This document shows, in pieces, positions 3,124 through 50,025 of a stretch of 64,000 nt of DNA. Each line of letters opens with the position of its first letter. Position 1 is the first letter of the stretch. The position numbers were made by a program, and so were the translations under genes. The stretch spans positions 465,026-529,025 of the forward strand of contig CAVUEQ010000001.1 in the NCBI GenBank assembly GCA_963740635.1, given 5' to 3'. The notes under the pieces were generated by a model that saw only the letters and a list, made by a program, of their open reading frames with translations, made no database searches and was not told the DNA's origin. The stretch is from an uncultured bacterium. GTDB taxonomy: Bacteria > Patescibacteriota > Saccharimonadia > UBA4664.

Positions 3124-5694
3124 TTAGGCGCCGGCATCGGCCGGGGCGGGCGTTTCAGTAGAGGCAGGGGTTTCGGTTTCGTCGGGTACGGCTTCGGGCT
3201 CATTGACCGCGGAGTGTTCAGCGGTGAGGTGGATCTGGTCGCCGCGGCGAGTGGCGGTGATGGTGTCGCCGGAGGTGAAGCGGCCGTCGAGCAGGCCGGT
3301 GGCCAGCGGGTCTTCGAGCAGGTCCTGGACCGCGCGGCGCATGGGGCGGGCGCCCTGTTTGGTGTCGTAGCCGCGCTCAATTAGCAGCCCCTTGGCCGAC
3401 GGCGTTACTTTGAGCTTGAGCTCTTGTTCGTCGAGGCGTTTGCTGAGGTCGGCCAGTTGCAGCACCAGGATTTTCTTTACGTCGTTGACACTGAGGGTCT
3501 TAAACACCAAGGTGGCGTCGATACGGTTGAGGAATTCCGGGCGGAATTGCTTCTTGAGGTCTTCCAGGACCTTGGCACGCACCTTGGCGTGGGTGGCCTC
3601 GAGTTGCTTTTCCTGGCTGGCGCTTTCGGTGCGGAAGCCGAGCTCCACCTCTTTGTTCATGTCGGAGGCGCCGACGTTACTGGTCATGATAATGACCGTG
3701 TTGCGGAAATCGACCCGGCGGCCCTTGGCGTCGGACACATAGCCGTCTTCGAGAATCTGCAGCAGCATGTTGAACACGTCGGGGTGGGCTTTTTCGAGCT
3801 CGTCGAACAGGATGAGGCTGTACGGCTTGCGGCGGACTTGCTCGGTCAGCTGGCCGCCCTCGTCGTAACCTACGTAACCAGCGGGTGCGCCCAGCAGGCG
3901 GCTCACGTTGTGGCGCTCCATGAATTCAGACATGTCGATCTTGATCATGGCGTCGCGGTCGTGGAACAGCTCTTCGGACAGCACGCGGGCGAGCTCGGTT
4001 TTGCCGACGCCGGTGGGACCCAGGAAGATGAAGCTGCCGATGGGGCGGCGGCTGTCAGAAACCCCGGTGCGGCTGCGGCGGATGCTGCGGGCGATCGCCT
4101 CGATGGCGTCGGCCTGGCCGATCACGCGGCGCTTGAGCGACTCTTCGATCTTGAGCAGGCTGTCGACTTCGGTCTTAATGAGGCGGGTGACGGGGATGCC
4201 GGTCATCATGGCCACCACTTGGGCGATGTCTTCGGCCAGGATGCGCACGGTGGCGTCGGCGGCGCCTTCCTTGAGCTTGAGCTGGCTGAGGCGGTTTTGG
4301 ATCACCGATTCGCGGGTCTTGAGGCGGGCGGCCAGCTCGAAGTCCTGGTCGAAGACGGCATTTTCGATGTCGTCGCGGATTTCTGAGACCTGCTTTTGGA
4401 GGTTGCGGAGAGCCTTGCTGGAGCCGCCGCGCTTGATGCGGGCCAGGCTGGCGGCCTCGTCGATGAGGTCAATGGCTTTGTCGGGCAGGAAGCGGTCGGC
4501 CACGTAGCGCTTGGCCAGCTTGGCGGCGGCGTCGATGGCCTCGTCGGTGATCTCCACGCGGTGGTGCTCCTCGTAGCGGGGGCGCAGGCCGCGCAGCACT
4601 TCCACGGTTTCCTCGGGCGTGGTCTCGGGGACCTGCACCGGCTGGAAGCGGCGCTCGAGGGCGGCGTCTTTTTCGATGTGCTTGCGGTATTCGTCGAGGG
4701 TGGTGGCGCCGATGACTTGGATTTCTCCGCGGCTGAGGGCAGGTTTGAGAATGTTGGCGGCGTCGATAGCGCCCTCGGCGGCGCCGGCGCCTACGACGGT
4801 GTGGAGCTCGTCGATAAACAGGATGACTTCGGGGCTGGCTTTGGCCTCGTCGAGGATTTTCTTGAGGCGCTCTTCGAATTCACCGCGGTACTTGGTGCCG
4901 GCAATGACCGACGCCAGGTCGAGCATCACGAGGCGCTTGCGCAGCAGCAGCTCGGGGACCTCTTCGGCGATCACGCGCTGGGCCAGGCCCTCGGCGATGG
5001 CAGTTTTGCCGACGCCGGGCTCGCCGATGAGCACCGGGTTGTTCTTGGTGCGGCGCCCCAGGATGGAGATCACGCGGCTGATTTGCGGTTCGCGGCCCAC
5101 CATGGGGTCGAGCTTGTTTTCGCCTGCCTTGCTGGTGAGGTCAATGCCGAAATGGTCGAGGGCGGGGGTTTTGGATTTGGCGTTGCCGGCCGCACCTTTG
5201 GTGGCCGTGCGGGTGCTGCCGCGCTCTTCGTCGGCGTAGAAGTACTGCTGGTTGCCCAGGTAATTTTCGAGCTCACCGCGAATGATTTGGGGGTCGATTT
5301 GCAGGTCGTTTTTGAGCAGGCTGATGGCCCGGGCGCTTTTTTCGCTCAGGATGGCAAACAGGATGTGCTCGGTGCCGCAGTAGGGCTGGCCGAATTCTTT
5401 GGCCACGCGCAGGCTGTAAGTGAGGGTGCGCTTGGCGGTTTCCGAGGCCCCCTTGTAGCCGCCGCCCGCCAGCTGCTGCGAGAAACTCAGCACGAGCTGG
5501 GCCTTCTCAAAGGTAACGCCAACATTTTTCAGAATTTTGGCCCCGATGGAGGTCTCTTGCTGCAGAACGCCGAGCAAAATGTGCTCAGTGCCCACGTACG
5601 AAGAGCCCATTTGGGTCGCTATGGCTTCAGCGTTCTCGAGACTGCGCTTGGCATTCTCGGTGAAGCGGTCGAATTGTGAGCTGAAGTCGGCCAT
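3124..5694 (-). CDS. clpC: ATP-dependent Clp protease ATP-binding subunit ClpC
   Basis: 856 aa. Double Clp_N repeat, two AAA+ modules (GEPGVGKTA and GPTGVGKTE), UVR-like linker, ClpB_D2-small C-terminus. Uninterrupted frame. Confidence 0.95.
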
Positions 5695-5772
5695 GGCGCT
5701 GCCCTTTATGAGACCAGTATATCATTGTTAGCACTCCATGCAAGCGAGTGCTAATTTGTGCTCTGCGGGCGG

Positions 5773-6144
5773 TCAAACGTGCAGCCGCTGCTTCAATATC
5801 AGGCGCTGGTTTTCCATACGATTGTGCTCCCGGTGGAGCGTGCGCCAACCCTTGTCCGTGAGTGTGTACGAACCGCGCACTTGGAGGTAACCTTTGGCGG
5901 TTAGTTCTTTTATCAGGGTGTAGCCTGTGGTTTTCCTGATAATGACTGCGCCTACCGTGTCCGCCAGCACGGCTTCGGGGATGCGCGCCCTGTCGATCGG
6001 GCCGGCCGCGACTGCCAGCAGAATGGCCATGCGCTCATAGCTCAGCGGGGCGAGGCGGGAATGCGGCCGGCGCGTGCCGTCCGGTGCCGGGCGGGCTTGA
6101 GGGCCGTATTGCCAGGGTTGGAGGCTGACTTGGGGATCGTTCAT
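5773..6144 (-). CDS. small winged-helix DNA-binding protein, family unassigned
   Basis: C-terminal half reads as a wHTH (..IRKTTGYTLIKELTAKGYLQVRGSYTLTDKGWRTL..). Lies directly upstream of clpC on the same strand. A perfect inverted repeat sits just upstream of its start. Confidence 0.5.
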   Translation of the reverse strand: MNDPQVSLQPWQYGPQARPAPDGTRRPHSRLAPLSYERMAILLAVAAGPIDRARIPEAVLADTVGAVIIRKTTGYTLIKELTAKGYLQVRGSYTLTDKGWRTLHREHNRMENQRLILKQRLHV

Positions 6145-10221: not shown

Positions 10222-10250
10222 GGCTAAATGTCGAATTTCGACATTTAGCC
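10222..10250. terminator. perfect 14-bp hairpin between convergent pepN and yraN
   Basis: GGCTAAATGTCGAA-T-TTCGACATTTAGCC. Overlaps the yraN stop codon. No clear U-run. Confidence 0.45.
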
Positions 10251-10601
10251 GGTGATGTCGGGCAGAAATTCGATCTCGGGTGAGTCCAGCGAGCCGGTCA
10301 CGCTGACCAGCCCTATCTGATAATGCCCGTAATGCCGATGGGCCTGGTTCCAGGCGAGGGCCGCGCGCGTGAGGCGGGTTAGCTTGTCATAATTAATGTA
10401 ATCGGCCGGGCTGCCCCAAGCGGTGCTGGCGCGGTATTTGACCTCCACAAAGTGGATGGTGCCGGCGCGGCGGGCCACGATGTCGAGTTCGCACCAGCGG
10501 TTGCGCCAGTTGCGGTCGAGAATTTGGTAGCCGCGGTGCTCGAGGTATTCGGCAGCCACGGTTTCGGCGGCGCGGCCGGTGCTAGTCGCCGACATGGCCA
10601 A
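10245..10601 (-). CDS. YraN-family (UPF0102) endonuclease-like protein
   Basis: AEYLEHRGYQILDRNWRNRWCELDIVARRAGTIHFVEVKYR is the classic YraN PD-(D/E)xK core. Follows rnhB, as in many genomes. Confidence 0.8.
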   Translation of the reverse strand: MAMSATSTGRAAETVAAEYLEHRGYQILDRNWRNRWCELDIVARRAGTIHFVEVKYRASTAWGSPADYINYDKLTRLTRAALAWNQAHRHYGHYQIGLVSVTGSLDSPEIEFLPDITG

Positions 10602-11241
10602 AATCCAAGCTGGCGAAAAATCCGGCGGCCGCTAGCTGTACGGGCTTGAAGAGCCGGCGGTGCAGTGGGCTTAGTTGCTCGCGCACGACGCGGGCATGGT
10701 GGGGGGTGCCGTAACCTTTGTTACTGGCAAAATTGTATTCGGGATACAGCTGGTGCAGCAGCATCATGTATTGGTCGCGGGCCACCTTGGCCACAATTGA
10801 GGCCGCGGCGATGGAATAGCTGAGACGGTCGCCCTTGATGATGGTTTGGGAGTAGCAGTGATCGCGGAGGTAATTGTGGTTGCCGTCGAGGAGGACGGCA
10901 TCGTAGGGGTGGGCCATGCCGTCGAGGGCCCGCAGACCGGACTGGTGCACTGCCCAACTGAGGCCGTGGGCGTCGATATCGGCCGGGCTCACCCAGCCTA
11001 TACCCACTGCCAATGACCGGCGCTTGATGAGCCTGGCCAGCTCCACCCGCCGCTGGTGGCTGAGCAGCTTGGAATCCGTGACGCCGCTCAAACGCACCCG
11101 GGGCGGCAATATCACCGCTGCGGCCACTACCGGCCCGGCCCAGCAACCGCGGCCGACCTCATCGATTCCGGCCACCAACGGATAGCCGGCGCTCATAAGC
11201 GCTATGGCATGGCGGTTGGTTGGGCTCGCAACTCTTGGCAT
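10582..11241 (-). CDS. rnhB: ribonuclease HII
   Basis: GIDEVGRGCWAGPVVAAAV catalytic motif, DSK, and IAAASIVAKVARD near the C-terminus. Confidence 0.9.
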   Translation of the reverse strand: MPRVASPTNRHAIALMSAGYPLVAGIDEVGRGCWAGPVVAAAVILPPRVRLSGVTDSKLLSHQRRVELARLIKRRSLAVGIGWVSPADIDAHGLSWAVHQSGLRALDGMAHPYDAVLLDGNHNYLRDHCYSQTIIKGDRLSYSIAAASIVAKVARDQYMMLLHQLYPEYNFASNKGYGTPHHARVVREQLSPLHRRLFKPVQLAAAGFFASLDFGHVGD

Positions 11242-12002: not shown

Positions 12003-12894
12003 GGCTCATTCCACGAAAACGGAACACTAGGTCAAGTTACTTGTAAGGGTAAGGAATGTTAGCGGGTCCGTAAAGAGTTCTGGGCGGTTTCTCCGCGCAC
12101 AGTACTCCTGCAGTAACCCAGGCAAGGATCGCTTTAGGAATTGGACCCGGGTACGAATAACAAACCTGTCAAAACTACTCCAGACACCCTCAATCCGGTT
12201 CGTGGGACCAAAGTGGCCTCGGTCGTGGTTGCACAACACGAGGCCGTAACCCACGTCCTCCAGGCTTAAATGTGAGGCGTGAGCGTCGGCATGAATCAAG
12301 GTTTCCGGCTCGACCCAGTCGTCTAGGAAGCCCTCGACGCTGTCTTGCTCCATGTCGGGGATGACGCGGATGCGAACCTCGTCAGTCTCGCGGTCCACCA
12401 CGCCCATGACGAGCACTTGGTTGCCGTGCTTCTTGCGCCCCAGATATGATTGGTCTATTTCGACCAATCCGGCCAGCTTGCCGGCATCCTCTGGCAATCG
12501 CTTGCGCAGCCGTTCCAACCACCGCTGGATGGTTTCGTAGCTGGTGCCTACCATGCCCAGGATGTCACCCGGTGAAAGTTTACGCACCCAGCCCAGGACA
12601 AGCGCCAGGATCTGCCGCCAGCTGAGCTTGGCGTACCCAAAGCCCAGCATCTTTTTGAGGCTCCACTTGCGACGGCAGCTTCGGCACCACAGATACTTCT
12701 CTCTCAGGCAAATACCTGGGTGATGCTTCCAGGGACACCGGGCGCCCTCAGGAAAGATATGATTGATGATTATTTGGACGCATCCGTAGTCATCTACGGG
12801 TAAATCGAGTACCGTATACACGGGACAGGCCTCCTAGCTTTAGTTGTTTCCGCAACTTGATTCTAGTGCTTGTTCCGTTTTAGTTGAATGAGCC
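12003..12894 (-). mobile_element. IS1595-family insertion sequence (892 bp, intact)
   Basis: Imperfect terminal inverted repeats: left GGCTCATTCCACGAAAACGGAACACTAG; reverse complement of right GGCTCATTCAACTAAAACGGAACAAGCACTAG. Single transposase ORF. 8-bp direct repeats AGTAGGAC flank it. AT-richer than the surroundings. Confidence 0.8.
12027..12821 (-). CDS. IS1595-family (ISXO2-like DDE) transposase
   Basis: N-terminal Zn-ribbon (C..C..WCRSCRRKWS), HTH segment, then the DDE_Tnp_IS1595-type core (VEIDQSYLG..VMGVVDRETDEVR..IHADAHASH..HFGPTNRIEGVWS). Confidence 0.85.
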   Translation of the reverse strand: MYTVLDLPVDDYGCVQIIINHIFPEGARCPWKHHPGICLREKYLWCRSCRRKWSLKKMLGFGYAKLSWRQILALVLGWVRKLSPGDILGMVGTSYETIQRWLERLRKRLPEDAGKLAGLVEIDQSYLGRKKHGNQVLVMGVVDRETDEVRIRVIPDMEQDSVEGFLDDWVEPETLIHADAHASHLSLEDVGYGLVLCNHDRGHFGPTNRIEGVWSSFDRFVIRTRVQFLKRSLPGLLQEYCARRNRPELFTDPLTFLTLTSNLT

Positions 12895-14121: not shown

Positions 14122-17100
14122 TTACTGTGCATGGGTGACTTGGCCCTCGCCGATGAGGTGGCTGAGGCGGTCGATGAGGGCGTCGGAGACTTCGACCTTG
14201 AAGGGCAGGCGGATTTTCTTGGGGGTGTCGGAGCCGATGACGAGGAAGATTTCGGATTGGCCGGAGTAGGCCGACAGGGCCGCCTTGATGTCGTGGAGGA
14301 GCTGCTGGTCGGACAGGTCGGACAGGTGCAGCAGCAGGTAGCCCCCGAGGGCCTCGGTGGAGGTGGCCGGCGGTGCGGGCGCGGGTTTTGCCGGGACCGG
14401 CGAGGGGGCGGCGGCTGGGGCAGCTTGGGCAGGAGCCTGGGGCGGTTCGGGCTTGGCCGCGGGTTGGGTTGGGGCATTGATGGGCACATGGCTGGTGGCG
14501 GCGTCGTAGTTGACGATTTTGGCCGAGTCGACCATGATTTTGGGCTCGGCGGTGAGGCGGCCTTCGCGGTCGCGGGCCGAGACTTTGCCGGTGGCCATGA
14601 TGACGTTGTCGGGCTCGTAGACTTCGGGCGACTTCTCGTAGGCTTTGGGGAACACGATCAGCTCTGTCAGGCCGGTCTTGTCCTCGATGCCCACGAAGGC
14701 CATGGTGGCGCCCTTTTTGGTGATGATTTTGCGGACGGTCGTGATGATGCCGCCGATGCGCACGAGTTTGCCGTCTTCGTCGGGGGTGAGGCCGGAGATG
14801 GGCGCGCAGGTGTCGGACAGGTAGGCGGCGTACTCGTCGAGCGGGTGGTGCGACAGGTAGAGGCCCAGCAATTCCTTTTCCCAAGCTAATAATTCGCGGC
14901 TGCTGGCCGGCTGCGGCGGCGGGTCGAGGCGTAGGGCCGGCAGGTCCTCGTCGGCGCCGAGCGAGCCGAAGATGTCGATCTGGCCCGACAGCGCATTTTT
15001 TTGGGCCTTGGCGGCGTAAGCGGTGATGGTTTCGAGGTTGTGCAGCAGCTCGGCGCGGTTGCCGCCGATGAGCGTGTCGAAGGCGCCGCATTTGGTGAGT
15101 GACTCCCAGACTTTGCGGTTGCATTCGCGGGCGCTCACCCGTTTGGCGAAATCTTCAATACTGGCAAACGGGCCGTCAACGCCCCGGGCGGCTAGAATCG
15201 CCTCGATGGGGCCGGTGCCGACGTTCTTGATGGCCGACAGACCGAAGCGGATGTTGCCCGAGTCTTTGACAACCGCAAATTCCAGGAATGACTCGTTGAC
15301 GTCGGGCGGGAGCACCTGGATGCCCATGCGCGTGCATTCGGCCACCTCGATGGCAATTCGGTCGATGTTGCCGAAGTCGGAGGTCATGAGGGCGGCCATG
15401 AATTCGCCCGGGAAGTGGGCCTTGAGGTAGGCGGTTTGGTAGGCAATGAGGCCGTAGCAGGCGGCGTGGGATTTGTTGAAGCAGTAGGCCGCGAAGTCTT
15501 CGAGGCTGGTCCAGAATTCTTCCATGAGCGCCCGGTCGGCGCCGGCCTTGGCCACCGCGCCGTCGATGAATTTGGTCCGCATTTTGCCCATCATGGAGGC
15601 GTTCTTTTTGCCGATGGCTTTGCGCAGGGTGTCGGCCTCGCCGCCGGTGAAACCGGCACACTTCCTTGGAAATCTGCATCACCTGCTCCTGGTACACCAG
15701 CACGCCGTAGGTGTTTTTGAGGGCGTTTTCCATCGACGGGTGGATGTAGGTGATGGGAGTGCGGCCGTGTTTGCGCTCGATGAAGTCCTCGATCCACTGC
15801 ATGGGACCGGGGCGGTAGAGGGCGACCATGGCGATGATGTCGTCGAACACGGTGGGTTTGAGGTCGCGGAGGTAGCGCTTCATGCCGGCCGATTCCAGCT
15901 GGAACACGCCGGTGGTGTCGCCGGAGCTGAGCAGCTCGAAGGTTTGGGGGTCGTCCAGCGGAAGGCGGGCGATATCGATGTCGGTGCCGTGGACTTTGCG
16001 GATGATGCGCAGCGCATTGTTGATGATGGTGAGGTTGGACAGGCCGAGGAAATCCATTTTGAGCAGGCCGAGCTCCTCGACCGGGCCCATGGAGTATTGC
16101 GTGGCGAGGCCGCCTTTTTGGGCGCGCTGGAGCGGCATGTAGGTAACGATTGGCTCGGGCGCAATCACCACGCCGGCCGCGTGCACTCCATTCGAACGTA
16201 TGGTGCCCTCCAGGCGGATGGCCTGGTCGATGAGCTGCTTGGCGCGGGGGTTGCCCTGGTATTCCTTTACCAGATCGGGCTCGGTACGCTGCTCGAAGCC
16301 CTTGCCGGTTTTGAGGCCCACCGCCACAGCCAGCGGAATGTGGCGGCCCTGCACCGGCATGCGGTACCAGTCTTGGCCATGCGGTCGACTTCGTCATAGG
16401 GCATGCCCAGCACCCGGCCGGTATCTCGGACGGCGTTGCGGGCCGCCATGGTGCCGAAGGTGATGATCTGCGCTACGCGTTCCTGGCCGTATTTCTCGGT
16501 GACGTAGTCGATCACCTCGCCGCGGCGCGTATCCTGAATGTCGATGTCGATATCGGGCATACTGATGCGGTCGGGGTTGAGGAAGCGCTCGAACAGCAGG
16601 TCGTATTTGAGCGGGTCGAGGTCGGTAATGTTGAGGCTGTAGGCCACGATGGAGCCGGCCGCGCTCCCCCGCCCCGGGCCGAAGATTATCCCAGCGTTTT
16701 TGCCCCAGTTTATGAAATCGGACACGATCAGGAAGTAGCCGTCGTAGCCCATGCGGCCGATGACGCCGAGCTCGTAATTCAGGCGTTCGGAAACGGCATT
16801 GTCGACCAGGTCGACGGCTTTGTCCTGGGTGATGTGCGGCACGTCCTCTTTGGGAATGCCGCCGTAGCGCCAGGCCAGGCCCTGCCAGCACAGCTGCCGC
16901 AGGTAGTCGCGCTCGGTGAGGCCTTCGGGCAGCGGGAAGGTGGGGATGAGGATACCGCCCAGCTTGATTTCCACCTGACAGCGCTCGGCGATGGCCACGG
17001 TGTTTTCGTAGACTTCGGGCAGGTGGCTCCACCGCGATTTAACGTCGCCGGGACCGGTGACGTAGAGGTCCATTTCCATGGTCATGCGGCCGGCGTCGCC

Positions 17101-17798
17101 GATGGTTTTGCCGGTCTGCACGCACAGCAGGATCTCGTGGGCCTCGCGGTCAGTAGGGATGGAGTAGTGGGCGTCGGCCGTGACTACCAGCGGCACGCCG
17201 GTCTTCTTGCTGAGACCGATCTTGGCCTCGTTGATGGCGCGCTGCTCGTCCCACTGGTGCGCGTGGGCCTGTAGCTCCAGGTAATAATTGCCGTGGCCGA
17301 AGGTGTCGTCGTACCAGCGGGCCACCCGCTCGGCCTCTTCCAGGTTGCCGTTGCGGATGTGGGTGGCGACCTCACCGCCGGCGCAGGCCGACAGCGCGAT
17401 GAGGCCCTCGTGGTACTGCACCAGCAGCTCGCGGTCCACGCGCGGCTTGTAGTAGTAGCCGTCGAGCTGGGCGATGGTGACGAGCCGCATAAGGTTGTGA
17501 TAGCCGGTATTGTTGTAGGCCAGCAGGATCGAGATGGTACGGGTTGGCATCCTGGCGGCCGGCTTTGTCCTGGTGACCGCGCGGCGCCACATACGTCTCC
17601 ACGCCGATTATTGGCTTGACACCGCGCTTTTTGGCCTCTTTATAAAACTCGATCGCGCCTGACATGCGTGCCGTGGTCGGTGAGAGCCACCGCATCCATG
17701 CCCAGATCCTGCACGCGGTCCAGCATCTCGGGCACTTTTTGCAGCCCATCGAGCAATGTGTAATGGCTGTGGTTATGCAAATGGACAAATTCGGACAA
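14122..17798 (-). pseudogene. dnaE: DNA polymerase III alpha subunit (DnaE), frame broken by five single-nucleotide insertions
   Basis: Four track ORFs (17372..17788, 16267..17592, 15176..16360, 14122..15594), plus a TTG-initiated N-terminus at 17798, together spell one continuous DnaE. It runs PHP domain [17 protein letters not shown].., palm/fingers, OB fold, C-terminal domain. Frame switches at about 17666, 17530, 16371, 16361 and 15658. Confidence 0.9.
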
Positions 17799-19985: not shown

Positions 19986-21437
19986 TTAACCCAAGCGATC
20001 GCGCAGGAGCTGGTTGATGAGGGGCGGGTTGCCCTTGCCCTGGGTGGCCTTCATGGCCTGGCCCACTAGGGCGCCGAACGCCCGCTGGTTGCCGGCCTTG
20101 TAGTCGGCCACGGCCTGCTGGTTGTTGGCGATGACGTCGTCCACGACTTTGGCCAGCTCGCCGGTGTCGGATTGCTGGAGGAGGTTGAGCTGGGTGGCGC
20201 GGGCCAGGGGGTCGGCGGCCTTGGAAAATAGGTCGGCCAGGAGGATCTTGGCGTTGGACGAGCTGAGTTGGCCAGCGGACACGAGGCGGCCGGCCGCCAC
20301 CAGAGCTTGAGGGTCGAGGGCACTGGCACTGAGGGCGGTCGACAGAGCGTCGGCCACCTTCACGCGGTCGCCGATGAGCCAGGTGAAGGCGAAGCGGCCC
20401 TGGGCCGGGTCGAGGACGGTGGCGTGATGCCAAAACACGGCCGCGTCGGGGTCGGCCACGAGCGCCTCGGATTCATTTGCGGGCAGGCCGGCGGCGGCCA
20501 GCTCGGCGCGCAGATCGGCGGGCAGAAGGCCGAGCTCGTTTTGCTGCTCGGCCACCATGGCCGGCGTGATGACCAGCGGCGGCAGGTCGGGTTCGGGGAA
20601 GTAGCGGTACTCGTCGGCGTCCTCTTTACTGCGCATGGAGTAGGTTTCGCCCAACGCGTCGTTCCAGCCGCGGGTTTCCTGGCGTATGTGTTCACCCTGC
20701 TCGAGCGCGGCGATCTGGCGGCGGGTTTCGTACTCGATCGTCTTCTCGATAGCTTGGAAACTGTTAAGATTCTTCGTTTCGGTGCGGGTGCCAAACGGCG
20801 TACCTGGCTTGTGGACGCTCACATTCACGTCGTAACGAATGTTGCCGTAATAGAGATTGGCGTCCGACGCCCCGGTGTAACGGGCCAAGTTGTATAGTTC
20901 TTTCGCGTAGGCCTTGGCCTCGGCGGCGCTGCGCATGTCGGGCTCCGAGACAATTTCGAGCAGCGGCGTTTCGGCGCGGTTGAGGTCCACGAGCGAATAA
21001 TTGGCGCCGTCGGGGTGGGTGAGCTTGCCGGCGTCGCCCTCGAGGTGGGCGCGAGTAATGCCCACACGGACGGTGCGGCCGTCCACCGGGAATTCAACGG
21101 CTCCATTCGGCACGATTGGCTCGTCGAATTGGGTAATTTGATAACCCTTGGGCAGGTCGGGGTAGAAGTAATTCTTGCGGTCGAATTTGGTGTGCAGGTT
21201 GTCCGGATATTTAGCGCCGAGGGCCAGGCCCAGCCGCAGCGCCAGCTCCACGGCGCGCTTGTTGAGCACCGGCAGCGTGCCGGGGAGCCCCATGCAGACC
21301 TCGCACACGTGGGTGTTGGGTTCGGCCTCGCGGCTGTCATTGTCGCAGCCGCAAAACAATTTGGTCTTAGTGGCCAGTTGCACGTGCGTTTCGAGGCCGA
21401 TCACGACTTCGTATTTGGCTCGCAGTTCGGGGTTCAC
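19986..21437 (-). CDS. gatB: Asp/Glu-tRNA(Asn/Gln) amidotransferase subunit B
   Basis: YEVVIGLETHVQLATKTKLFCGC..MGLPGTLPVLN..RKNYFYPDLPKGYQITQ..ANLYYGNIRYDVNVS, plus a GatB_Yqey C-terminus. Confidence 0.95.
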   Translation of the reverse strand: MNPELRAKYEVVIGLETHVQLATKTKLFCGCDNDSREAEPNTHVCEVCMGLPGTLPVLNKRAVELALRLGLALGAKYPDNLHTKFDRKNYFYPDLPKGYQITQFDEPIVPNGAVEFPVDGRTVRVGITRAHLEGDAGKLTHPDGANYSLVDLNRAETPLLEIVSEPDMRSAAEAKAYAKELYNLARYTGASDANLYYGNIRYDVNVSVHKPGTPFGTRTETKNLNSFQAIEKTIEYETRRQIAALEQGEHIRQETRGWNDALGETYSMRSKEDADEYRYFPEPDLPPLVITPAMVAEQQNELGLLPADLRAELAAAGLPANESEALVADPDAAVFWHHATVLDPAQGRFAFTWLIGDRVKVADALSTALSASALDPQALVAAGRLVSAGQLSSSNAKILLADLFSKAADPLARATQLNLLQQSDTGELAKVVDDVIANNQQAVADYKAGNQRAFGALVGQAMKATQGKGNPPLINQLLRDRLG

Positions 21438-22000
21438 AGCTTGACTCCAAAAACGGTGTTTAGATCTATCTGACGTTTAAGCTCAGCAAGTTCGTCTTCT
21501 GTCAGTGCCCGGCTGATTTCGTCTATTTGACGATCGCTATTTATCCCGATTGGCAGGTCGCGGGCGGCGTAAAGCGTAACATGGGAGGGCTGGATTGGCA
21601 TCGAGAGCTCAAGCTGCCGGCTGAGATTATCGAAGAATTCCGCTAGTTTGCTGACTTTTACTCGAATGATTAGTGTCTGGCGGTCCCGGGCCGCATCAGA
21701 AACTACCCGCAGATCAGGCAGAAATTGTTCAACCTGGGGATTCACGTTCTCCAAAATGACGGCCGCCTGCTCTAGCGCGAGCTTTCCGGCTGCGTCGGGT
21801 GTAATTTTGCGAGCCTCGACTAACATTGGCACCAGCCGCTTGATGGCAATGATCGTGCAGTGCAGGTGTGACCGGCGCTGGTAGGTATTCCCGCTAAGCG
21901 TAATTGTTTCTGGCAGAGTGGAAACAAGTTTCGGGGCGAGGCTCTCAATAATATTGCCTTCCATAAATTCGTATGGGGCTTTGAGCGTAATGGTAGTCAT
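21434..22000 (-). CDS. hypothetical protein with two HxTx motifs (2H-phosphoesterase-like, tentative)
   Basis: 188 aa. HCTI at residues 47-50 and HVTL at 140-143, about 90 aa apart as in LigT/CPDase-type 2H enzymes. AT-richer than gatA/gatB. ATGA overlaps at both ends. Confidence 0.45.
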   Translation of the reverse strand: MTTITLKAPYEFMEGNIIESLAPKLVSTLPETITLSGNTYQRRSHLHCTIIAIKRLVPMLVEARKITPDAAGKLALEQAAVILENVNPQVEQFLPDLRVVSDAARDRQTLIIRVKVSKLAEFFDNLSRQLELSMPIQPSHVTLYAARDLPIGINSDRQIDEISRALTEDELAELKRQIDLNTVFGVKL

Positions 22001-22454
22001 CCCATCGCCTGCAAATCTTTTAGGGCTTGCTCGAAATCGTTGAGAGCCTCTTTGGCCTGGCTCGGGACGAGGTCGAAGCCGACTTCGTGGGCCAGGGCGT
22101 TGCGCAGTTTGTGGGCGCGCCAGACGGCGTTTTGATCGGTGAAGCGCGGTCCGGCCAGCTTGAGACGGTCGGCCATTTTCTCGCCGCCGTAGCCCAACTG
22201 CTTCATGACGTGGTCGAGCAGTTTGTCGGCCTCGTTAAGCGAACTTTTGAGGCCTGAGGCGCCGGTGTTGCTGACGTGCATTATGGTCTCCCAGCGGGAT
22301 TTGATTTCGGATTGGTCAACATGACCGCGGTAGCCGCGGCTGGATGCTACGGTGCGTGTGTATTTGCGCTTGGGAGTGCCATTAATGACGACAGCGTACA
22401 AAATGACACCGGCTAACAGGGCAACGAGGAGGAAGGCAAACATGGCGGTGGTGG

Positions 22455-22458
<4 letters not shown>
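21997..22458 (-). CDS. membrane-anchored hypothetical protein with Rx4H (HEPN/DUF4145-like) motif
   Basis: N-terminal TM helix (AMFAFLLVALLAGVILYAVVI) and a helical domain ending ..AVWRAHKLRNALAHEVGF. ATG 22458 overlaps the gatA stop (ATGA). Confidence 0.45.
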
Positions 22459-23895
<1,437 letters not shown>

Positions 23896-33513: not shown

Positions 33514-34047
33514 TCATGGCTTCACAGCCGTTAGCTCTTCTTCGTAGCGCTTCACCTGGAATTTGGAGATGCTCACCGGCTCGTCCGGGCGGATTCCGCC
33601 CTTTTCGCGGCAGATGGCTATTTGTTCCGCCGCGCTGGTGACGTCCGGGAGCGCGGGCAGCAACACGCCTTGGCGGCCATCGCCGGCCGACACGACCACG
33701 CCGAACACGGCGGGATCGAGCTGGGATTGATCCGGCTCGGGCACGGATGATGTGAGCACGTCGACGCTGATTTTCAGCCCATCCAGCTCGGCCAAACTTA
33801 CCGGCGCAAACCGGGGATCGTGGGCGGCGGCACTGACGGCGTTGGCGATAACCTCGGCCGCCACGTTGGCCTCAGCCGCCTGGGTGGTGCCGATGCAGCC
33901 GCGCAAACTGCCGTCCGCCTCGTGCAGCGACACGAACGCGCCGGCCCGGCGGCCGAGCTCCGCGGGTAAACCGTAGGGTACCGGCAGTACCTTGCCCGAC
34001 CGCAGGTAGTACTCGAGCGAAAGCCGGGCCAAAGCGGTGATGATCAT
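33514..34047 (-). CDS. AMMECR1-domain protein
   Basis: GAFVSLHEADGSLRGCIGT signature. Confidence 0.85.
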   Translation of the reverse strand: MIITALARLSLEYYLRSGKVLPVPYGLPAELGRRAGAFVSLHEADGSLRGCIGTTQAAEANVAAEVIANAVSAAAHDPRFAPVSLAELDGLKISVDVLTSSVPEPDQSQLDPAVFGVVVSAGDGRQGVLLPALPDVTSAAEQIAICREKGGIRPDEPVSISKFQVKRYEEELTAVKP

Positions 34048-34673
34048 GCCCCGTCTCCGGCTGTGGGTTCGTAGGTGGCCACCAGGTAGCCGACGCCGAA
34101 CGGGCCTTCATACGACAAGACGCTGGGGGTAAAATTGCGCCCGAGCACAGCGCCCAGCAGGAATAAAACCGACCTCAGCCCGCATTCCGCCCCCTGCTCG
34201 AGAGTCGCCGGGTCGAGGTGCAACAGCGTTTGGTCGTCGCCGGCGCGCACGGCCCGCACGATGGCCTCGTCGAGTACCGGCCCGGCCGGGTCGAAGCCGT
34301 AGGGCCCGTCGGGTTTGAGCACATGCGACAAATCGCCCGAGGCCAGGATGGCGTAGCGCCTGCGCTCACCGGCGATGCGGTCGCCCATCTGTTGGCCGAG
34401 CTCATAGTAGTGCTCGTACGACGGCTCGGTGACGAGAATTTGCTCCACGCCGGTGCCGGGCGGGAGGTGTTTGCGCAGGTAATACAGCGGCACGTCAAAC
34501 CCGTGGCCCTCGTGCGGGGCAATAATAATGAGCCCATCGGGCCGGGCCTGTGCCAGCAATTGCGCTGCCCTGGCGAGGGCGTCGACGGTATGTTGGACCT
34601 TAGCGATGTCCTCGCGCCCGACCTCGGGCAGAATGATCGGCGGATGGGGCGAAATTAGACCATAAACCAGCAT
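34044..34673 (-). CDS. LigB/Memo-like class III extradiol dioxygenase-fold protein
   Basis: LISPHPPIILPEVG..IIIAPHEGHG..ASGDLSH pattern. Overlaps the AMMECR1 gene (ATGA), a recurrent pairing. Confidence 0.6.
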   Translation of the reverse strand: MLVYGLISPHPPIILPEVGREDIAKVQHTVDALARAAQLLAQARPDGLIIIAPHEGHGFDVPLYYLRKHLPPGTGVEQILVTEPSYEHYYELGQQMGDRIAGERRRYAILASGDLSHVLKPDGPYGFDPAGPVLDEAIVRAVRAGDDQTLLHLDPATLEQGAECGLRSVLFLLGAVLGRNFTPSVLSYEGPFGVGYLVATYEPTAGDGA

Positions 34674-40967: not shown

Positions 40968-41182
40968 ATGTTTTGGCCTTTCTATTTGGGCCGGGTAAAA
41001 AACGCGGCCGACTTCCTTAGAAGCAGCCGCAATGGACGCCTATTGGCCGCTGTCCTACAGGTTAATTGTAGCATAATCGACTTGTCGCTCTGGGCGCACG
41101 CGTGCTCCGGGTGCAACGCGGCCATAGCGTCGTTCCAGCCCATCTCGAAGGTCTTTTTCCGCACAATCACGAGCGAGTAACG

Positions 41183-44100
41183 CTAGCTTACTTCTTCTTG
41201 TAAGCTGTCGTCGATTTTCTCCATTATCCTATTCGTCTCGCCGAGGATCTTTAAGATATGCTGGTAGTGCTCTATGTCGTCATTTGTTAGCTTATGGTTT
41301 TTTCTGTCCTTAAGCCATTTTTGAGCAGGACGATAACCCCCCAGGGTGGTTTCCCATGCTTTTCTGGGTACTTCGCCGAAGTACTGTTCATTATTGATGT
41401 AAACACTTCCAATATCAGGGTGATCGCCCTCAACCCAGTCAATACCATCTACGAAGTCACTCCCGCTAACCGGGAAGGTTGTGCTAAAACTCTCGATATT
41501 CTTAACTTTCATGAGGTGAAGCTCGCGTAGTTCTGACCCCTGCTGTGCTAACCGCGTAAATTCGGAGTCGCTTTTCGGAACAGGCACCCGAGCATAGTCT
41601 ATTTTCAGGAATTCTTTATACTTGTTGCGGTAATGAGCTGAATGAAATATTGCATACATATAGTCAAGCAAGTCTTCTGGCGAGAACTGGACATTAATGT
41701 TTCTAGTGAGTTTTCTCACTGAAGTGAGGTTCAGGTTTGCTGTTTTACTGCCGTCATCGTGATACAAATACAGCGGAAAAAAGCGACAATTATCGAACGG
41801 CGAAATCGCATCCTTATCGACAAGGGTATCCGCGATAAAAAAACAATTTGTATTTCCTCGCCGGGAATTTCGTATTGCTATTAGAGCAAGGTTGTCCCTA
41901 AGCATGTTCCTCATCAGCGGAGCACGTGGATATGCCATTAACCCTTTGGTCGTGCCGCTGTACCAGGTTTTTCTTATATCAAACGGCCGGTAAAGCACAT
42001 CGGCATCCACTCCTTTATCTTTTTTGACATCACCCACGGCTCCGTCAACAGTCCAGTCTCGACCATCATCCCCAAGATCGTATTTAGTCCTCAGTTCCTC
42101 GTTACTTAGAAAGAGAAATCTTCGATTATCTTACCCACTTTGTCTTGTGAGAACTGGTAAACAAGGTTATCTCTTTTTGTCTGCATCCCTGAGTTAAATT
42201 CTATAAATATCTCATCAATAGGCAGGTACTCGTCGTACTCCTCCTGCAGGCTAAAGTCCTTCGGAACAAAGAAATAGCCAGGCGCTTGCGGCTTTAGCTC
42301 TCTCCATTCTGCGGGTTTGCTTAGTTCGGAAAACTTGCTTTTGCGACTTCCAAATAACTCGGCAAAGTGTACTTTTGCCAGTTTGCCGCTTGAGTCTGAT
42401 CTCTTTACAAAGATGCTTATAGACACACCCTGCATAATGTCAAAGACATTTTCATCTTTACTGCCATCGGGTGCCACCTCGTTTTTATTACTACTCCCGT
42501 GCAAATCTAGTACGTATATTTCGTCGAAGGTTTCTAGTAAGTGCCTTCGCATTTGACGGTGAGTAATTCCATCAATAAAGGAATTGTTTGTGATCATCGC
42601 AACTATCCCCTCGCCATTTTTCGCAACCATCTCCTCAGCAAAGCGAATGAATTTGATGTAGTCATCATCAAGATTTATTTTTCTTTCGCCAAGGTTTTTC
42701 TTATAAATGGAAATGAGATCTTGTATGTACTCGCTTTTGTTATTGCTACTTATTGAGTATGGTGGGTTACCCATGACGACCATAATGGGTCGTTGATGCT
42801 TTATCTCGCTAGCAGCCTGACTTTCTTCTGAGACAGCCTGAGCCAGACCGAAGCTAAAAAGATCTGGTTGCGTCGGCACGCCTTCTTCGAGTGTATTTGT
42901 AAGGTACACGCCTAGACGTTTTGCGAAGTGCGTAACACCTGTTTCTTGTAGTGTAATTCCGAGCTTGAGGTGCGCTATTGTGTAGGGAGCCATCATCAGC
43001 TCAAAACCGTGCAGTCGGTCAATAAGGTCAATCTCGACGTAACTCGGCCACCTGCCTTCTTGGCCCTTGAAGCCCTCATAAATGTACTTGATGGTTTCAT
43101 TCAAGAATGTTGCCGTACCAACGGCGGGATCGAGAATTTGTACACGATGAAACTGTTTCTCGATCGAGTTTGTTTTAGTTTTTATACGACGGCCCGTAGA
43201 CTGTGTCTTAATAATATCCACATCTTGGCCGAGCTCGACCGTGCGAGTAATCTTACTGACATCGGCTAGGCCCTTGGGCAAGTTGAAGTCTCGTTTTAGG
43301 ATTTCATCCACCTGCTGGATGATAAAGCGGACAACAGGGACAGGGGTATAATATGCCCCCATGCGTTTTCGTTCGATTGGGTCGTATTCTTTTAGAAAGT
43401 CCTCATAAAAATGAATGATTGGGTCTTTATCAGAGCTATCAGCCGTCACCCCAAGGTGCTTGTGAACAATATCGTTAACCTTCGATGCCTGAAAAACCTC
43501 ACATAGTTCATCAACGATGTAGGCAAGGCGTATGTCAAAGTCGGCGCCAGCTATGTGATCGAAAAATTTACGTAAAAACGGGTTGCTTTTAGGAACGAGG
43601 TCCCGAGCCTCTTGCCTGCTGAAATCATCTGGGGTGGTATCGCTGTAACGGGCTACAAATAGCCCATATACCAATGTTTGCGCGTACATATCGGCAAATT
43701 TCTCTGAAGTAAGGTCATGAACAAGCAATTTGCGCAGCATGGCAAACATTTTTTCGAGCTCGGCATTTCGAGTCTCGTCCGGTTTGGCCAGATATAAAGC
43801 CACATTGTCACGGATGCGCCGGGCTTTTGCACCCATGAGCTCAGCGAGGCGACGCCCAGACCGAATGGTTTCTGGCGGAAGTCGTAAGAATTCGGCGAGT
43901 TCATCGGCGAGCTGAGGACCAGCACTTGGATCAATATGAAGTTCACCATCCTTCACTGTTCCTAGAGATATGGTTTGGTATTTCTCGCCGTTTTTAAAGA
44001 AACGAAATTCGAGATAATCGGTGAGGAAAAGATTGGAGTAACCAGCATAACGCTGCATTTGCTCGGATTTTTCGGTTTTGTCTAGGCTGATTCCGATATC

Positions 44101-44331
44101 TTTAGTCTCGGCGTAGCCTGAAATAATAGCCATATTTGAACTGTGCAAGAATACGAAATCTGGGTTGCCGTGCTCGCTACGGCTTGGATCGTTTACGACA
44201 TGGCAGTCGTCAAAACTTGCCATTAAATTATAAAGGGCTGGGCGGTAAGCATGCTCGCGCGCGTGTCCCGAAGCAAGTTGGGCGCGAATTTTGGCGATGT
44301 ATTCGGAGACTGCGGCGTATTTTGGACTCAT
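41183..44331 (-). pseudogene. single-chain nuclease-methyltransferase (Type IIG / Type ISP-C-terminal-like N6-adenine MTase), split by a frame change
   Basis: N-terminal PD-x16-ExK (NPDFVF..GYAETKD). MTase motif I ILDPAVGTATFL and motif IV GNPPY. The C-terminal ~300 aa continue in another frame (..IIEDFSF* versus open ..FLFLSNEELRTKYDLGDDGRDWTV..) at about 42100. About 20 points AT-richer than the flanks, by eye. Confidence 0.75.
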
Positions 44332-44374
44332 GGTTACGGCAAGTATATCTTATGCTGCCTACCTTACGGTAGCG

Positions 44375-45364
44375 CTAAGGTGCTGGCTTGGATTTGTTAG
44401 CATTTTCCCCTGACTCTGTAGGATCCTTCCCCCTCGCTTCGAGCTCTGGCGTGGGGTTATTGGCTTTATTAATCTCCTGGATCTTTTTGTAATCAATTGT
44501 TAGAGCACCGTTTATTTCTTTCGCATATGAGGGCGGGTTCAGCGATAGGTGAAATTCCACGCCACTTCCAAGTTCTTTTACCAACTCAGTGGTAGCCTTC
44601 ACCAACTTAGACTGCATCTCGGCCTCACCGTGGCCATTGGTTTCCGTAATCTTTTCTAGTAGCTTCTCAATCTTTCTCTCTAGCTCAATCTCTAAATGTC
44701 TATTCTGGTACTCCTCAAATTCTTTTTGGTCGAACTTTTCCTGCTGTTTTAACCCTGCCCGATAGTCTATTTCAGCCTTTTCGGATTTAAAGTATTCGGT
44801 TCGGGCTTTAAAGTATTCCTGCGCTACCTGGAGGCAGGCAATAAATATCGTATAGGTCGTATACCCCGTTAGCCATAAGGAGTACCAATCTGTTCCCTTA
44901 TCGAAGCCGTTAAACCGTATTTCACCATCGATATTGAATAGCTTGAACAGCTTGTTAAGCCGGGTATTTAGACTACTTACGCCTGTAAGGCTCCTTAGGT
45001 CTTTTGGAAGCTTAACATTTATTACTTGTTCCTCTTGGGGCTCGACAAGTGTGTCGATGATTCCGATGAACACCGGCAGCTGCTGGTTCACAGAGGTCAC
45101 ATACGAATTTAGCTCATTAAACTCTGCCGGCGTAAGCTGAGGCTTAAATGATGTTGCCCCATGAGCTTCTTTGATAGCTTCAATCTCTGAGTAATCGATA
45201 TCGTTCCACTTTTGTTCAGAGAGCACATCCAAAGCCTTAATTAGCATTGAATACCTGCTAATCTGATGGGCTTGACCGCCGAATAGCGGCTCTTGTGTAA
45301 GCACAATCTGGTTGTTTGAGCCAGCTACCGCCTTGACGATATTTCGAATTTCCCCCAGCCTCAT
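44375..45364 (-). CDS. hypothetical protein (329 aa, one hydrophobic helix + Lys/Glu coiled coil)
   Basis: Clean ORF with AAGGA Shine-Dalgarno, 43 nt upstream of the RM gene on the same strand. Central WYSLWLTGYTTYTIFIACLQVA, then a charged helical region. No motif I can name. Confidence 0.7.
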   Translation of the reverse strand: MRLGEIRNIVKAVAGSNNQIVLTQEPLFGGQAHQISRYSMLIKALDVLSEQKWNDIDYSEIEAIKEAHGATSFKPQLTPAEFNELNSYVTSVNQQLPVFIGIIDTLVEPQEEQVINVKLPKDLRSLTGVSSLNTRLNKLFKLFNIDGEIRFNGFDKGTDWYSLWLTGYTTYTIFIACLQVAQEYFKARTEYFKSEKAEIDYRAGLKQQEKFDQKEFEEYQNRHLEIELERKIEKLLEKITETNGHGEAEMQSKLVKATTELVKELGSGVEFHLSLNPPSYAKEINGALTIDYKKIQEINKANNPTPELEARGKDPTESGENANKSKPAP

Positions 45365-45476
45365 AAGATATATCCTTACATTCGTAACAGCTATTCTTGA
45401 CTATTTTAGGTGACAGGTCAATTTTAACCCTACTTCAAGCCTAGTTGTCGCCTATCGAAGCGTAGAGAATTTGAAT

Positions 45477-45505
45477 TTGCTAGTTCGCTTTTTGTTCGCT
45501 ATAAT
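45477..45505 (+). promoter_or_regulatory. sigma70-type promoter
   Basis: TTGCTA-N17-TATAAT, 40 nt upstream of ATG 45546. Confidence 0.5.
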
Positions 45506-45545
45506 GTTAGCTCCAAGCTGTGATAGGTGGTTATTGGGCTAATGC

Positions 45546-45872
45546 ATGCCAGATTCTGAAAAACAATTTACAATAGCATTAACAGGCATTGACCGGGTCG
45601 CTGTTCGCATAGAGCGTAATGGAAGGCTAGTTATCGACTTCTCTGTACAATACGAGGCACTTATGGGAGGCGTTTGGCGCAAGGTGAACAGGTTTGATGG
45701 TTCTCATAATGAGCCTCACCAACATGTTTTTTACCCTGACGAGACCGAGCGAAGGCGCATATTCCCGTACCAACCCATGAGTAAAGCGCTAACAGAGGCA
45801 CTGACAACTACAAAACAAACTTATGAGAGAATGCGGGCAAATTATGAGCGCGCGATGAGGAGGTCACGATGA
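45546..45872 (+). CDS. small protein, first gene of a TA-like pair (His-rich motif; TumE/DUF6516-like resemblance is weak)
   Basis: 108 aa, ..WRKVNRFDGSHNEPHQHVFYPDETE... The stop overlaps the next start (ATGA). Confidence 0.55.
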   Translation: MPDSEKQFTIALTGIDRVAVRIERNGRLVIDFSVQYEALMGGVWRKVNRFDGSHNEPHQHVFYPDETERRRIFPYQPMSKALTEALTTTKQTYERMRANYERAMRRSR

Positions 45873-46117
45873 GCGAACAATTTGTGAAGAAGAATGTGAA
45901 GCTCTCGCTGGAGTTCGATAATTATCTTGTTAAGCACCTGGATATGCTCGATCAAATTCCTGACAAGTCTTGGATTGTGCTAACGATTAACGGTGATGAA
46001 GATTTCAACCGGGATAGTATTTCTATTGCCAGGAAGAGCCGCTCTCGAAGGAGATTCGTAGAAGCGCATAAGTCGGGGCGCTCATGGGTGGTGCGCCCAC
46101 TGGAACTGAGCAAGTAG
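45869..46117 (+). CDS. small protein, second gene of the pair (DUF5647-like pattern, tentative)
   Basis: 82 aa, MSEQFVKKNVKLSLEFDNYLVKHLDMLDQIPDKSWIVL... Confidence 0.55.
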   Translation: MSEQFVKKNVKLSLEFDNYLVKHLDMLDQIPDKSWIVLTINGDEDFNRDSISIARKSRSRRRFVEAHKSGRSWVVRPLELSK

Positions 46118-46122
46118 TTTTT

Positions 46123-50025
<3,903 letters not shown>

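Follow-up and report, generated by a model that had tools for sequence, protein, structure and literature searches.

In the window analysed here, a stretch of 64,000 nucleotides from an 829-kb contig of an uncultured Saccharimonadia (TM7/CPR) genome, probably a long-read metagenome assembly, the minus-strand dnaE gene coding for DNA polymerase III alpha (17798..14122, from a TTG start at 17798 to a stop at 14122) is cut into six frame segments by five frame changes, every one of them +1. We consider it very probable that the five extra bases are errors in the deposited consensus, absent from the organism's DNA. This reading is favoured because all five sites carry what appears to be the signature of two superposed alleles, because the window holds other indels of the long-read type (in a G5 run of ligA and in a T run of a restriction-modification gene), and because the same classes of error are found in the dnaE of sister long-read contigs. 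A localised consensus or assembly artefact, for example through strain mixing, was one of three explanations offered by an earlier, sequence-only reading of this DNA, and the anatomy of the sites, the indels of the window and the sister contigs all point to it.

Integrity of the repaired dnaE product

The pieces of dnaE run through frames 2, 1, 0, (2), 1 and 0 (start coordinate modulo 3, from the ORF list and the sequence), and removal of bases 17666, 17530, 16371, 16361 and 15658 yields a single stop-free ORF of 1223 aa, in agreement with the five +1 insertions proposed by the sequence-only reading. The repaired product is 79-81% identical over its full length to intact Saccharimonadia DnaE. 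An alignment with 11 intact orthologues shows no gap at any of the five junctions, which bears out the same reading in that conserved sequence resumes straight after each break and no residues seem to be missing. The repaired gene has no deletion, stop codon or missing residue. The PHP, DNA_pol3_alpha, finger, HHH_6 and OB domains are all present and colinear with those of the orthologues, the five Pfam profile spans being 1-260 of 260, 1-165 of 166, 1-164 of 164, 1-90 of 90 and 1-74 of 75; in domain content and order, the repaired product is a DnaE. It deviates at 2 of the 383 highly conserved columns (at least 97% conserved), which is the orthologue median. A full-length DnaE is found in all of the best 120 orthologues.

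Anatomy of the five sites

At each break, the codon and the extra base form a 4-mer from which alternative one-base deletions yield the residues that are most frequent in that column among the 120 orthologues, two or three per site. Site 1 (17663..17666, all sites being on the minus strand) reads CATG where the orthologues have Leu (CTN/TTG) or Met (ATG); removing A gives Leu (108/120 orthologues) and removing C gives Met (12/120). Site 2 (17527..17530) reads GATC at a codon for Ile (ATC/ATT) or Val (GTT), and loses either G to give Ile (109/120) or A to give Val (9/120). At site 3 (16368..16371), ACTG stands for a codon that is Leu (CTG/CTC) or, in a few orthologues, Met, obtained by removing A (97/120) or C (5/120), respectively. 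Three codons further on, site 4 (16358..16361) is again CATG, at a codon for Gln (CAG) or Met (ATG); here removal of T gives Gln (78/120) and removal of C gives Met (16/120). Site 5 (15655..15658) reads TGCC, where the orthologues have Cys (TGC/TGT), Ser (TCC) or Ala: Cys is obtained by removing one C (91/120), Ser by removing G (18) and Ala by removing T (11). A random insertion would give the same outcome with p = 0.20-0.32, and for all five sites together p lies between about 3e-4 and 3e-3. Seven relatives have ordinary 3-nt codons at all five positions.

As the sequence-only reading had noted, no site lies in a homopolymer run of 3 or more, with site 5 possibly a CC doublet. It had read Met, Met and Ala at sites 1, 4 and 5, where the orthologue consensus gives Leu, Gln and Cys. 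Judged from the sequence, which base is the extra one cannot be fixed, several deletions giving residues that the orthologues support. No motif common to the five sites was found. An error tied to a shared motif or methylation site was considered and rejected, as CATG, GATC, GGTACC, GCATGC and CGCATG recur 13 to 227 times across the window without any shift.

We infer a mixture of two alleles, followed by polishing, as the source of the extra bases, with the candidate alleles at the five sites read from the orthologue columns. The reads behind the consensus would have carried two alleles over about 2 kb of dnaE, coming from co-existing strains or from a close relative. Where they differed, at five variable codons, the alignment would have shown one inserted and one deleted base, and both bases would have stayed in the consensus, so that CTG/ATG became CATG at site 1, GTC/ATC became GATC at site 2, ATG/CTG became ACTG at site 3, CAG/ATG became CATG at site 4 and TGC/TCC became TGCC at site 5. 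Synonymous variants in the preceding codon, such as ACG/ACC, would account for the sites equally well. In either case, the true gene would be an ordinary intact dnaE.

Other frameshifts in the window

The genes clpC, pepN, nusA, radA, gatA and gatB and an ORF of 994+ aa (the >3.1 kb surface-protein gene of the sequence-only reading, which had described all of these as clean) are unbroken. The premise that dnaE is the sole broken gene of the window did not hold up, as two further genes are frameshifted. The NAD-dependent DNA ligase gene ligA (48166..46123, minus strand) loses its frame by +1 within a C4/G4/G5 stretch, likely through one surplus G in the G5 run 47667..47663. The DNA_ligase_aden profile matches one ligA ORF at positions 2-96 and the next frame at positions 101-253, and in relatives the gene is one ORF of 678-691 aa. 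In a Type ISP / type IIL-like restriction-modification gene (44331..41183, minus strand), which sits in a low-GC island, the frame moves by -1 at the T run near 42112..42110; its product reads to EDFSF and a stop, then resumes as FLSNEELRTKY in the next frame. ORF 42109-44331 ends with Type_ISP_C positions 1-33, and ORF 41186-42037 covers positions 79-341 of that profile. Both shifts fall at homopolymer runs, the classical long-read type of error, and this assembly thus carries sequencing-type indels outside dnaE as well. Homology checks were needed because a crude codon-usage HMM for frame switches detected those of dnaE and missed those of ligA and the restriction-modification gene. A further possible shift flagged by tblastn, at the junction of RNase HII and UPF0102 (10585-10595), was rejected, as both genes there are complete and the start codon needed is present.

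The clustering of shifts in dnaE is real: there are 5 in 3.7 kb, versus 2 in about 50 kb of other coding sequence. We estimate that a Poisson model predicts about 0.14 shifts in dnaE and gives at least 5 with a probability of the order of 1e-7 to 1e-6. Foreign reads drawn to whichever gene is most conserved would not suffice to explain the clustering, because clpC and nusA are more conserved (89-91% aa identity to the nearest relatives, versus 83% for dnaE), yet clean. The indels in ligA and the restriction-modification gene might suggest that dnaE merely lies in a patch of unpolished long-read noise, of low coverage or made of raw reads, with no mixture of alleles. Such a patch should also have brought deletions and substitutions, but dnaE has none above the orthologue background, and its five sites lie outside homopolymers of at least 3 and fall non-randomly at variable codons. 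A raw, unpolished patch was rejected for this lack of substitution and deletion noise, and we regard generic noise as quite unlikely.

The break in ligA, a second replication gene, could also be taken as a sign that the mutations are genuine, dnaE being then a very recent pseudogene, either of a genome that possesses a different replicase or of a defective sub-population, and the dnaE frameshifts, the last of them at least, do appear in the public record. The ligA lesion in a G5 run is, however, typical of sequencing error. Bacterial pseudogenes are deletion-biased, and five independent insertions without a deletion, a stop codon or an excess of substitutions would make a very odd spectrum of decay. 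A pseudogene would be expected to show mixed lesions and excess substitutions at conserved positions, whereas the gene has no decay beyond the five bases and only the two deviations among its highly conserved columns. Real insertions would moreover have no reason to hit codons where the 4-mer encodes two residues supported by orthologues. The genomes of Saccharimonadia measure about 1 Mb and are not known to carry a polC or more than one dnaE. A genuine pseudogene, the second explanation offered by the sequence-only reading, is therefore a poor fit, and we hold it to be improbable.

Related assemblies and public sequences

Three other Saccharimonadia contigs (L081, L082 and L084), with Flye-style names and from neighbouring ENA analyses, have six dnaE shifts in total: 2 are homopolymer deletions and 4 are non-homopolymer, of the +1 type, directly after a third codon base. 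Short-read (Illumina-type) relatives have an intact dnaE. Two scaffold-type relatives (L083 and L085) were discarded as cases of frameshift, as the breaks that split their dnaE are runs of N only.

Public protein sequences include a 489-aa C-terminal fragment of this DnaE, encoded on a single contig of 828,923 bp, so that the deposited assembly contains the final frameshift (site 5) at the least. The next-best match to the fragment is 72% identical, and the best full-length protein match to DnaE is 79% identical. No second assembly of the species, which could have offered an independent sequence lacking the extra bases, was found in the collections searched. The source genome is absent from the GTDB representative genomes, and an exact-pattern scan of metagenome contigs for the stretch around sites 3 and 4, in which the extra bases were optional, found 0 matches.

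Recoding

The common direction of all five shifts, and the perfect conservation of the flanking frames, as if the product were still made, would be expected if the extra bases were real and skipped in expression, through programmed +1 ribosomal frameshifting, quadruplet decoding or RNA editing. The five contexts, however, are unrelated (ACG-C-ATG, CTC-G-ATC, AAG-A-CTG, CCG-C-ATG and GTG-T-GCC), and they hold no slippery codon able to re-pair in +1 and no adjoining 0-frame stop, the next such stops lying about 9 (site 1), 52 (site 2), 34 (site 3) and 160 (site 5) codons further on. No significant stimulatory RNA structure was found near the sites (fold z between -0.4 and -0.7 for three sites, +0.4 for a fourth). 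The window has 4 tRNA genes (Leu-taa, Cys-gca, Gly-gcc and Phe-gaa), in which ARAGORN, run on the window only, found the usual anticodons and flagged nothing; quadruplet decoding would call for expanded-anticodon tRNAs, with an 8-nt anticodon loop, that match five different quadruplets. The nearest relatives all lack an extra base at these sites, and the inefficiencies of five serial events in an essential enzyme would multiply. We thus see no supporting signal, in motif, RNA fold or window tRNAs, for this third explanation of the sequence-only reading, which we judge very improbable. That the lineage should express its sole replicative polymerase through five context-independent +1 recodings, for which there is no known bacterial precedent, is scarcely credible.

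Significance and comparison with known systems

If the call of a consensus artefact is right, this dnaE belongs neither among the pseudogenes nor among the cases of recoding. The sites would instead illustrate a non-homopolymer class of error in long-read metagenome consensus, in which two variant codons become a 4-mer. Such superpositions would escape tools for frame correction and quality control that are tuned to homopolymers, and this class of error can mimic recoding. The sites may also reflect something real and local in the population, the joint occurrence of two dnaE alleles over about 2 kb, which would be of only modest interest.

The programmed +1 frameshift of prfB (RF2) likewise skips one extra nucleotide to make the full protein. 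It does so at a single site, CUU UGA C, which has an in-frame stop, is preceded by an SD-like stimulator and is kept across bacteria, whereas dnaE has five unrelated contexts, no stop and no stimulator, and its sites are not conserved in relatives; a shift of the prfB type needs a shift-prone P-site codon that can re-pair in +1 beside a stop or hungry codon, and none of the five contexts offers one. The frameshift or transcriptional slippage of dnaX also lies within a gene of the DNA polymerase III holoenzyme, but it is a -1 event on A AAA AAG or an A-run that yields a shorter alternative product, while the dnaE shifts are +1 at run-free sites, the unshifted reading giving truncated fragments only. 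In the endosymbionts Buchnera and Blochmannia, essential genes of a reduced genome that seem frameshifted are rescued by slippage on poly-A tracts. This requires long homopolymer tracts, and none of the five dnaE sites has the long A or T homopolymer on which transcriptional slippage depends.

The dnaE breaks also resemble the residual indel errors of Nanopore-only or long-read metagenome assemblies, where genes are also split into adjoining ORFs with conserved sequence back at once, where homopolymer indels occur as in this window, and where short-read relatives are intact. Nanopore-only metagenome assemblies polished by a single round of Medaka are documented, as are residual indel frameshifts in assemblies of this kind (PMC12313526, PMC9262707), and IDEEL tests, proovframe and Homopolish target the residual indel and frameshift errors of long-read assemblies (PMC9262707, bioRxiv 10.1101/2021.08.23.457338). 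The dnaE events differ from such errors in being non-homopolymer, insertions only and clustered in 2 kb. Their resemblance to two superposed variant codons thus suggests population heterogeneity rather than classical homopolymer error.

Five extra bases in dnaE

The dnaE gene of this uncultured Saccharimonadia bacterium (TM7, Patescibacteria) lies on the minus strand of a window with about 61% GC, from a TTG start at 17798, preceded by GAGGGAG, to a stop at 14122. Gene order is the same as in locus L001 (MAG UBA6017) over about 3-27 kb. The pieces of dnaE in the ORF list have start coordinates of 2, 1, 0, (2), 1 and 0 modulo 3, with five frame shifts, all +1. Taking out one base at 17666, 17530, 16371, 16361 and 15658 (sites 1 to 5) gives a single ORF of 1223 aa. 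The top matches of the protein are Saccharimonadia DnaE (79-81% identity); once repaired, it aligns with 11 intact orthologues free of gaps at every junction and matches the PHP, DNA_pol3_alpha, finger, HHH_6 and OB profiles of Pfam end to end. The sequence-only reading, which had reported five +1 insertions in dnaE, is thus right in each literal statement. Beyond the OB fold, residues ~1094-1223 (14122-14520, minus strand) comprise a Pro/Ala-rich linker and, at the C-terminus, a domain of some 70 aa (LLHDIK...PKKIRLPFKV), conserved in Saccharimonadia orthologues and covered by no Pfam model.

We compared the sites codon by codon with seven relatives and took residue counts from the best 120 full-length DnaE orthologues, every one of which is intact. 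Each site carries a 4-mer where the relatives have one codon, and the extra base within the 4-mer is not assignable. One deletion gives M (12 of 120 orthologues) or L (108) from CATG at site 1, I (109) or V (9) from GATC at site 2, L (97) or M (5) from ACTG at site 3, Q (78) or M (16) from CATG at site 4, and C (91), S (18) or A (11) from TGCC at site 5. All five 4-mers thus hold two or three residues in real use at that column; the residues read earlier at sites 1, 4 and 5 differ from the orthologue consensus (L, Q and C). When we simulated the insertion of a random base at a random place of the repaired gene, at least two orthologue-supported residues resulted with p = 0.20-0.32, and five of five sites with a probability of 3e-4 to 3e-3. 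The pattern is that expected from the merging of two alleles with different versions of a variable codon: C-TG and -ATG would give CATG, TGC- and T-CC would give TGCC. The sites are equally well explained if it was synonymous variants of the codon before (ACG/ACC, CTC/CTG, AAG/AAA, CCG/CCC, GTG/GTT) that were merged.

We therefore regard a consensus artefact as the most likely reading of the five bases, and a probable one. The read set over some 2 kb of dnaE would contain two alleles, the polisher would have retained both variant bases at five variable codons, and the real gene would be an ordinary, intact dnaE.

Neither genuine frameshift mutation nor recoding would give a reason for such 4-mers. 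Moreover, in the 383 alignment columns with at least 97% conservation, the repaired protein departs from the majority residue in 2, the median of the 120 orthologues (range 0-24), and the repaired gene has no deletions, stop codons or missing residues. These features speak against a pseudogene, whether old or young, and genuine recent mutations are unlikely. They also count against generic noise from an unpolished raw-read patch, which would bring substitutions and deletions as well, and which we hold to be slightly less likely still.

Recoding appears the least probable, and very improbable indeed. The contexts of the five sites (ACG-C-ATG, CTC-G-ATC, AAG-A-CTG, CCG-C-ATG, GTG-T-GCC) have nothing in common, none of their P-site codons is able to re-pair in +1, and the following 0-frame stop lies about 9 to 160 codons away. 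RNA folding near the sites is not better than for shuffled sequence (z of -0.4 to -0.7 at three sites, +0.4 at one). The palindromes found there (CATG, GATC, GGTACC) are common across the window, with no shifts at the other copies; the four tRNA genes of the window have usual anticodons and no ARAGORN flag; and an extra base is present at none of the sites in the seven relatives.

Other genes of the window

Broken genes were surveyed by tblastn of the window against all ORFs of 82 related loci (26 kb covered), and by Pfam searches of about 50 ORFs over most of the remaining coding sequence. The neighbouring long genes had been described as clean, which stands for clpC, pepN, nusA, radA, gatA and gatB, but two other genes are split. 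The first, ligA (46123-48166, minus strand), is one ORF of 678-691 aa in relatives; here the adenylation-domain profile is matched over positions 2-96 in the ORF at 47663-48166 and over 101-253 in the next frame. The +1 shift lies within GACGACCCCAGGGGTAGGGGGTAA, a C4/G4/G5 stretch, and the frame returns when one G is taken from the G5 run (47667-47663). It is a second broken replication gene, absent from the sequence-only reading, yet its context is typical of homopolymer error. The second is a Type ISP / type IIL-like (MmeI-like) restriction-modification gene on the minus strand, in which a T run near 42112-42110 coincides with a -1 shift. It lies in a low-GC island (about 41000-46000, 45-53% versus about 61%; minus-strand ORFs 41183-42037, 42106-44331 and 44375-45364) that was probably acquired horizontally; no family match was obtained for the upstream ORF of 329 aa.

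Shift density is thus 5 in 3.7 kb of dnaE versus 2 in about 50 kb elsewhere, and the clustering in dnaE survives. Only the two elsewhere are classical homopolymer events. Foreign reads recruited to conserved genes are not a sufficient explanation of the clustering, since clpC and nusA are more conserved (89-91% aa identity to the nearest relatives, versus 83% for dnaE) but clean. The population may include a dnaE allele with local divergence. Downstream of dnaE, at a distance of 1.3 kb, is a transposase gene of the IS1595 family (ISXO2-like DDE; 12027-12821, minus strand), and a polymorphic or repeated IS there could complicate assembly of the neighbourhood.

What looked like a shift at the boundary of RNase HII and UPF0102 (YraN) was rejected as an ordinary two-gene junction: at 10248-11241 (minus strand) these are separate, overlapping genes, and in several relatives (e.g. 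loci L082 and L038) one fused ORF of 306-333 aa. Between gatA and gatB (21434-22470, minus strand) lie ORFs of 157 and 188 aa with overlaps of 4 nt and 16 nt, neither with a Pfam match and the latter with a weak coding signal; relatives have a single small ORF in this gap (139 aa in L082). The minus strand at 33514-34673 carries AMMECR1 and then a short LigB-like gene (Memo-type, 209 aa). The best Pfam stretch of the latter covers only profile positions 119-268 of 269, so it may be truncated at the N-terminus.

Public record and sister assemblies

A 100% identical, 489-aa C-terminal DnaE fragment (P0121) is present in the public protein collection, from one 828,923-bp contig (NCBI, ENA), so at least the shift at site 5 was already in the deposited assembly and not added later. 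The P0121 search also gave truncated DnaE fragments on further large Saccharimonadia contigs. Two scaffold-type loci with a split dnaE (L083, L085) were rejected as frameshifts, runs of N causing the splits. Three others, named in Flye style and with ENA analysis numbers close to each other, have dnaE in three pieces, with two shifts each: L081 (ERZ25039522, contig_10049, shifts at 5320-5830), L082 (ERZ25039483, contig_4599, 5040-6060) and L084 (ERZ25039485, contig_33485, 4420-5040). Two of these six shifts are homopolymer deletions (G5 read as G4, A4 read as A3); four are of the non-homopolymer +1 type, each directly behind the third base of a codon (TAC-T-GGT, CTT-G-CTT, ATT-G-ATG, GTG-C-GCG), although for TAC-T-GGT in L081 a 2-nt deletion is equally possible. 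No shifts were seen in the homology-covered flanks (about 17 kb), a hint that dnaE is struck more than its surroundings, in a sample biased by loci having been found through a broken dnaE. The AK(L/I)(V/M)P stretch that holds sites 3 and 4 of the window is also where ATT-G-ATG occurs in L084, and it may be a hot spot of consensus error in dnaE. metaFlye assemblies built from Nanopore reads only and polished by a single Medaka round are on record, as are the indel frameshifts left in assemblies of this sort (PMC12313526, PMC9262707).
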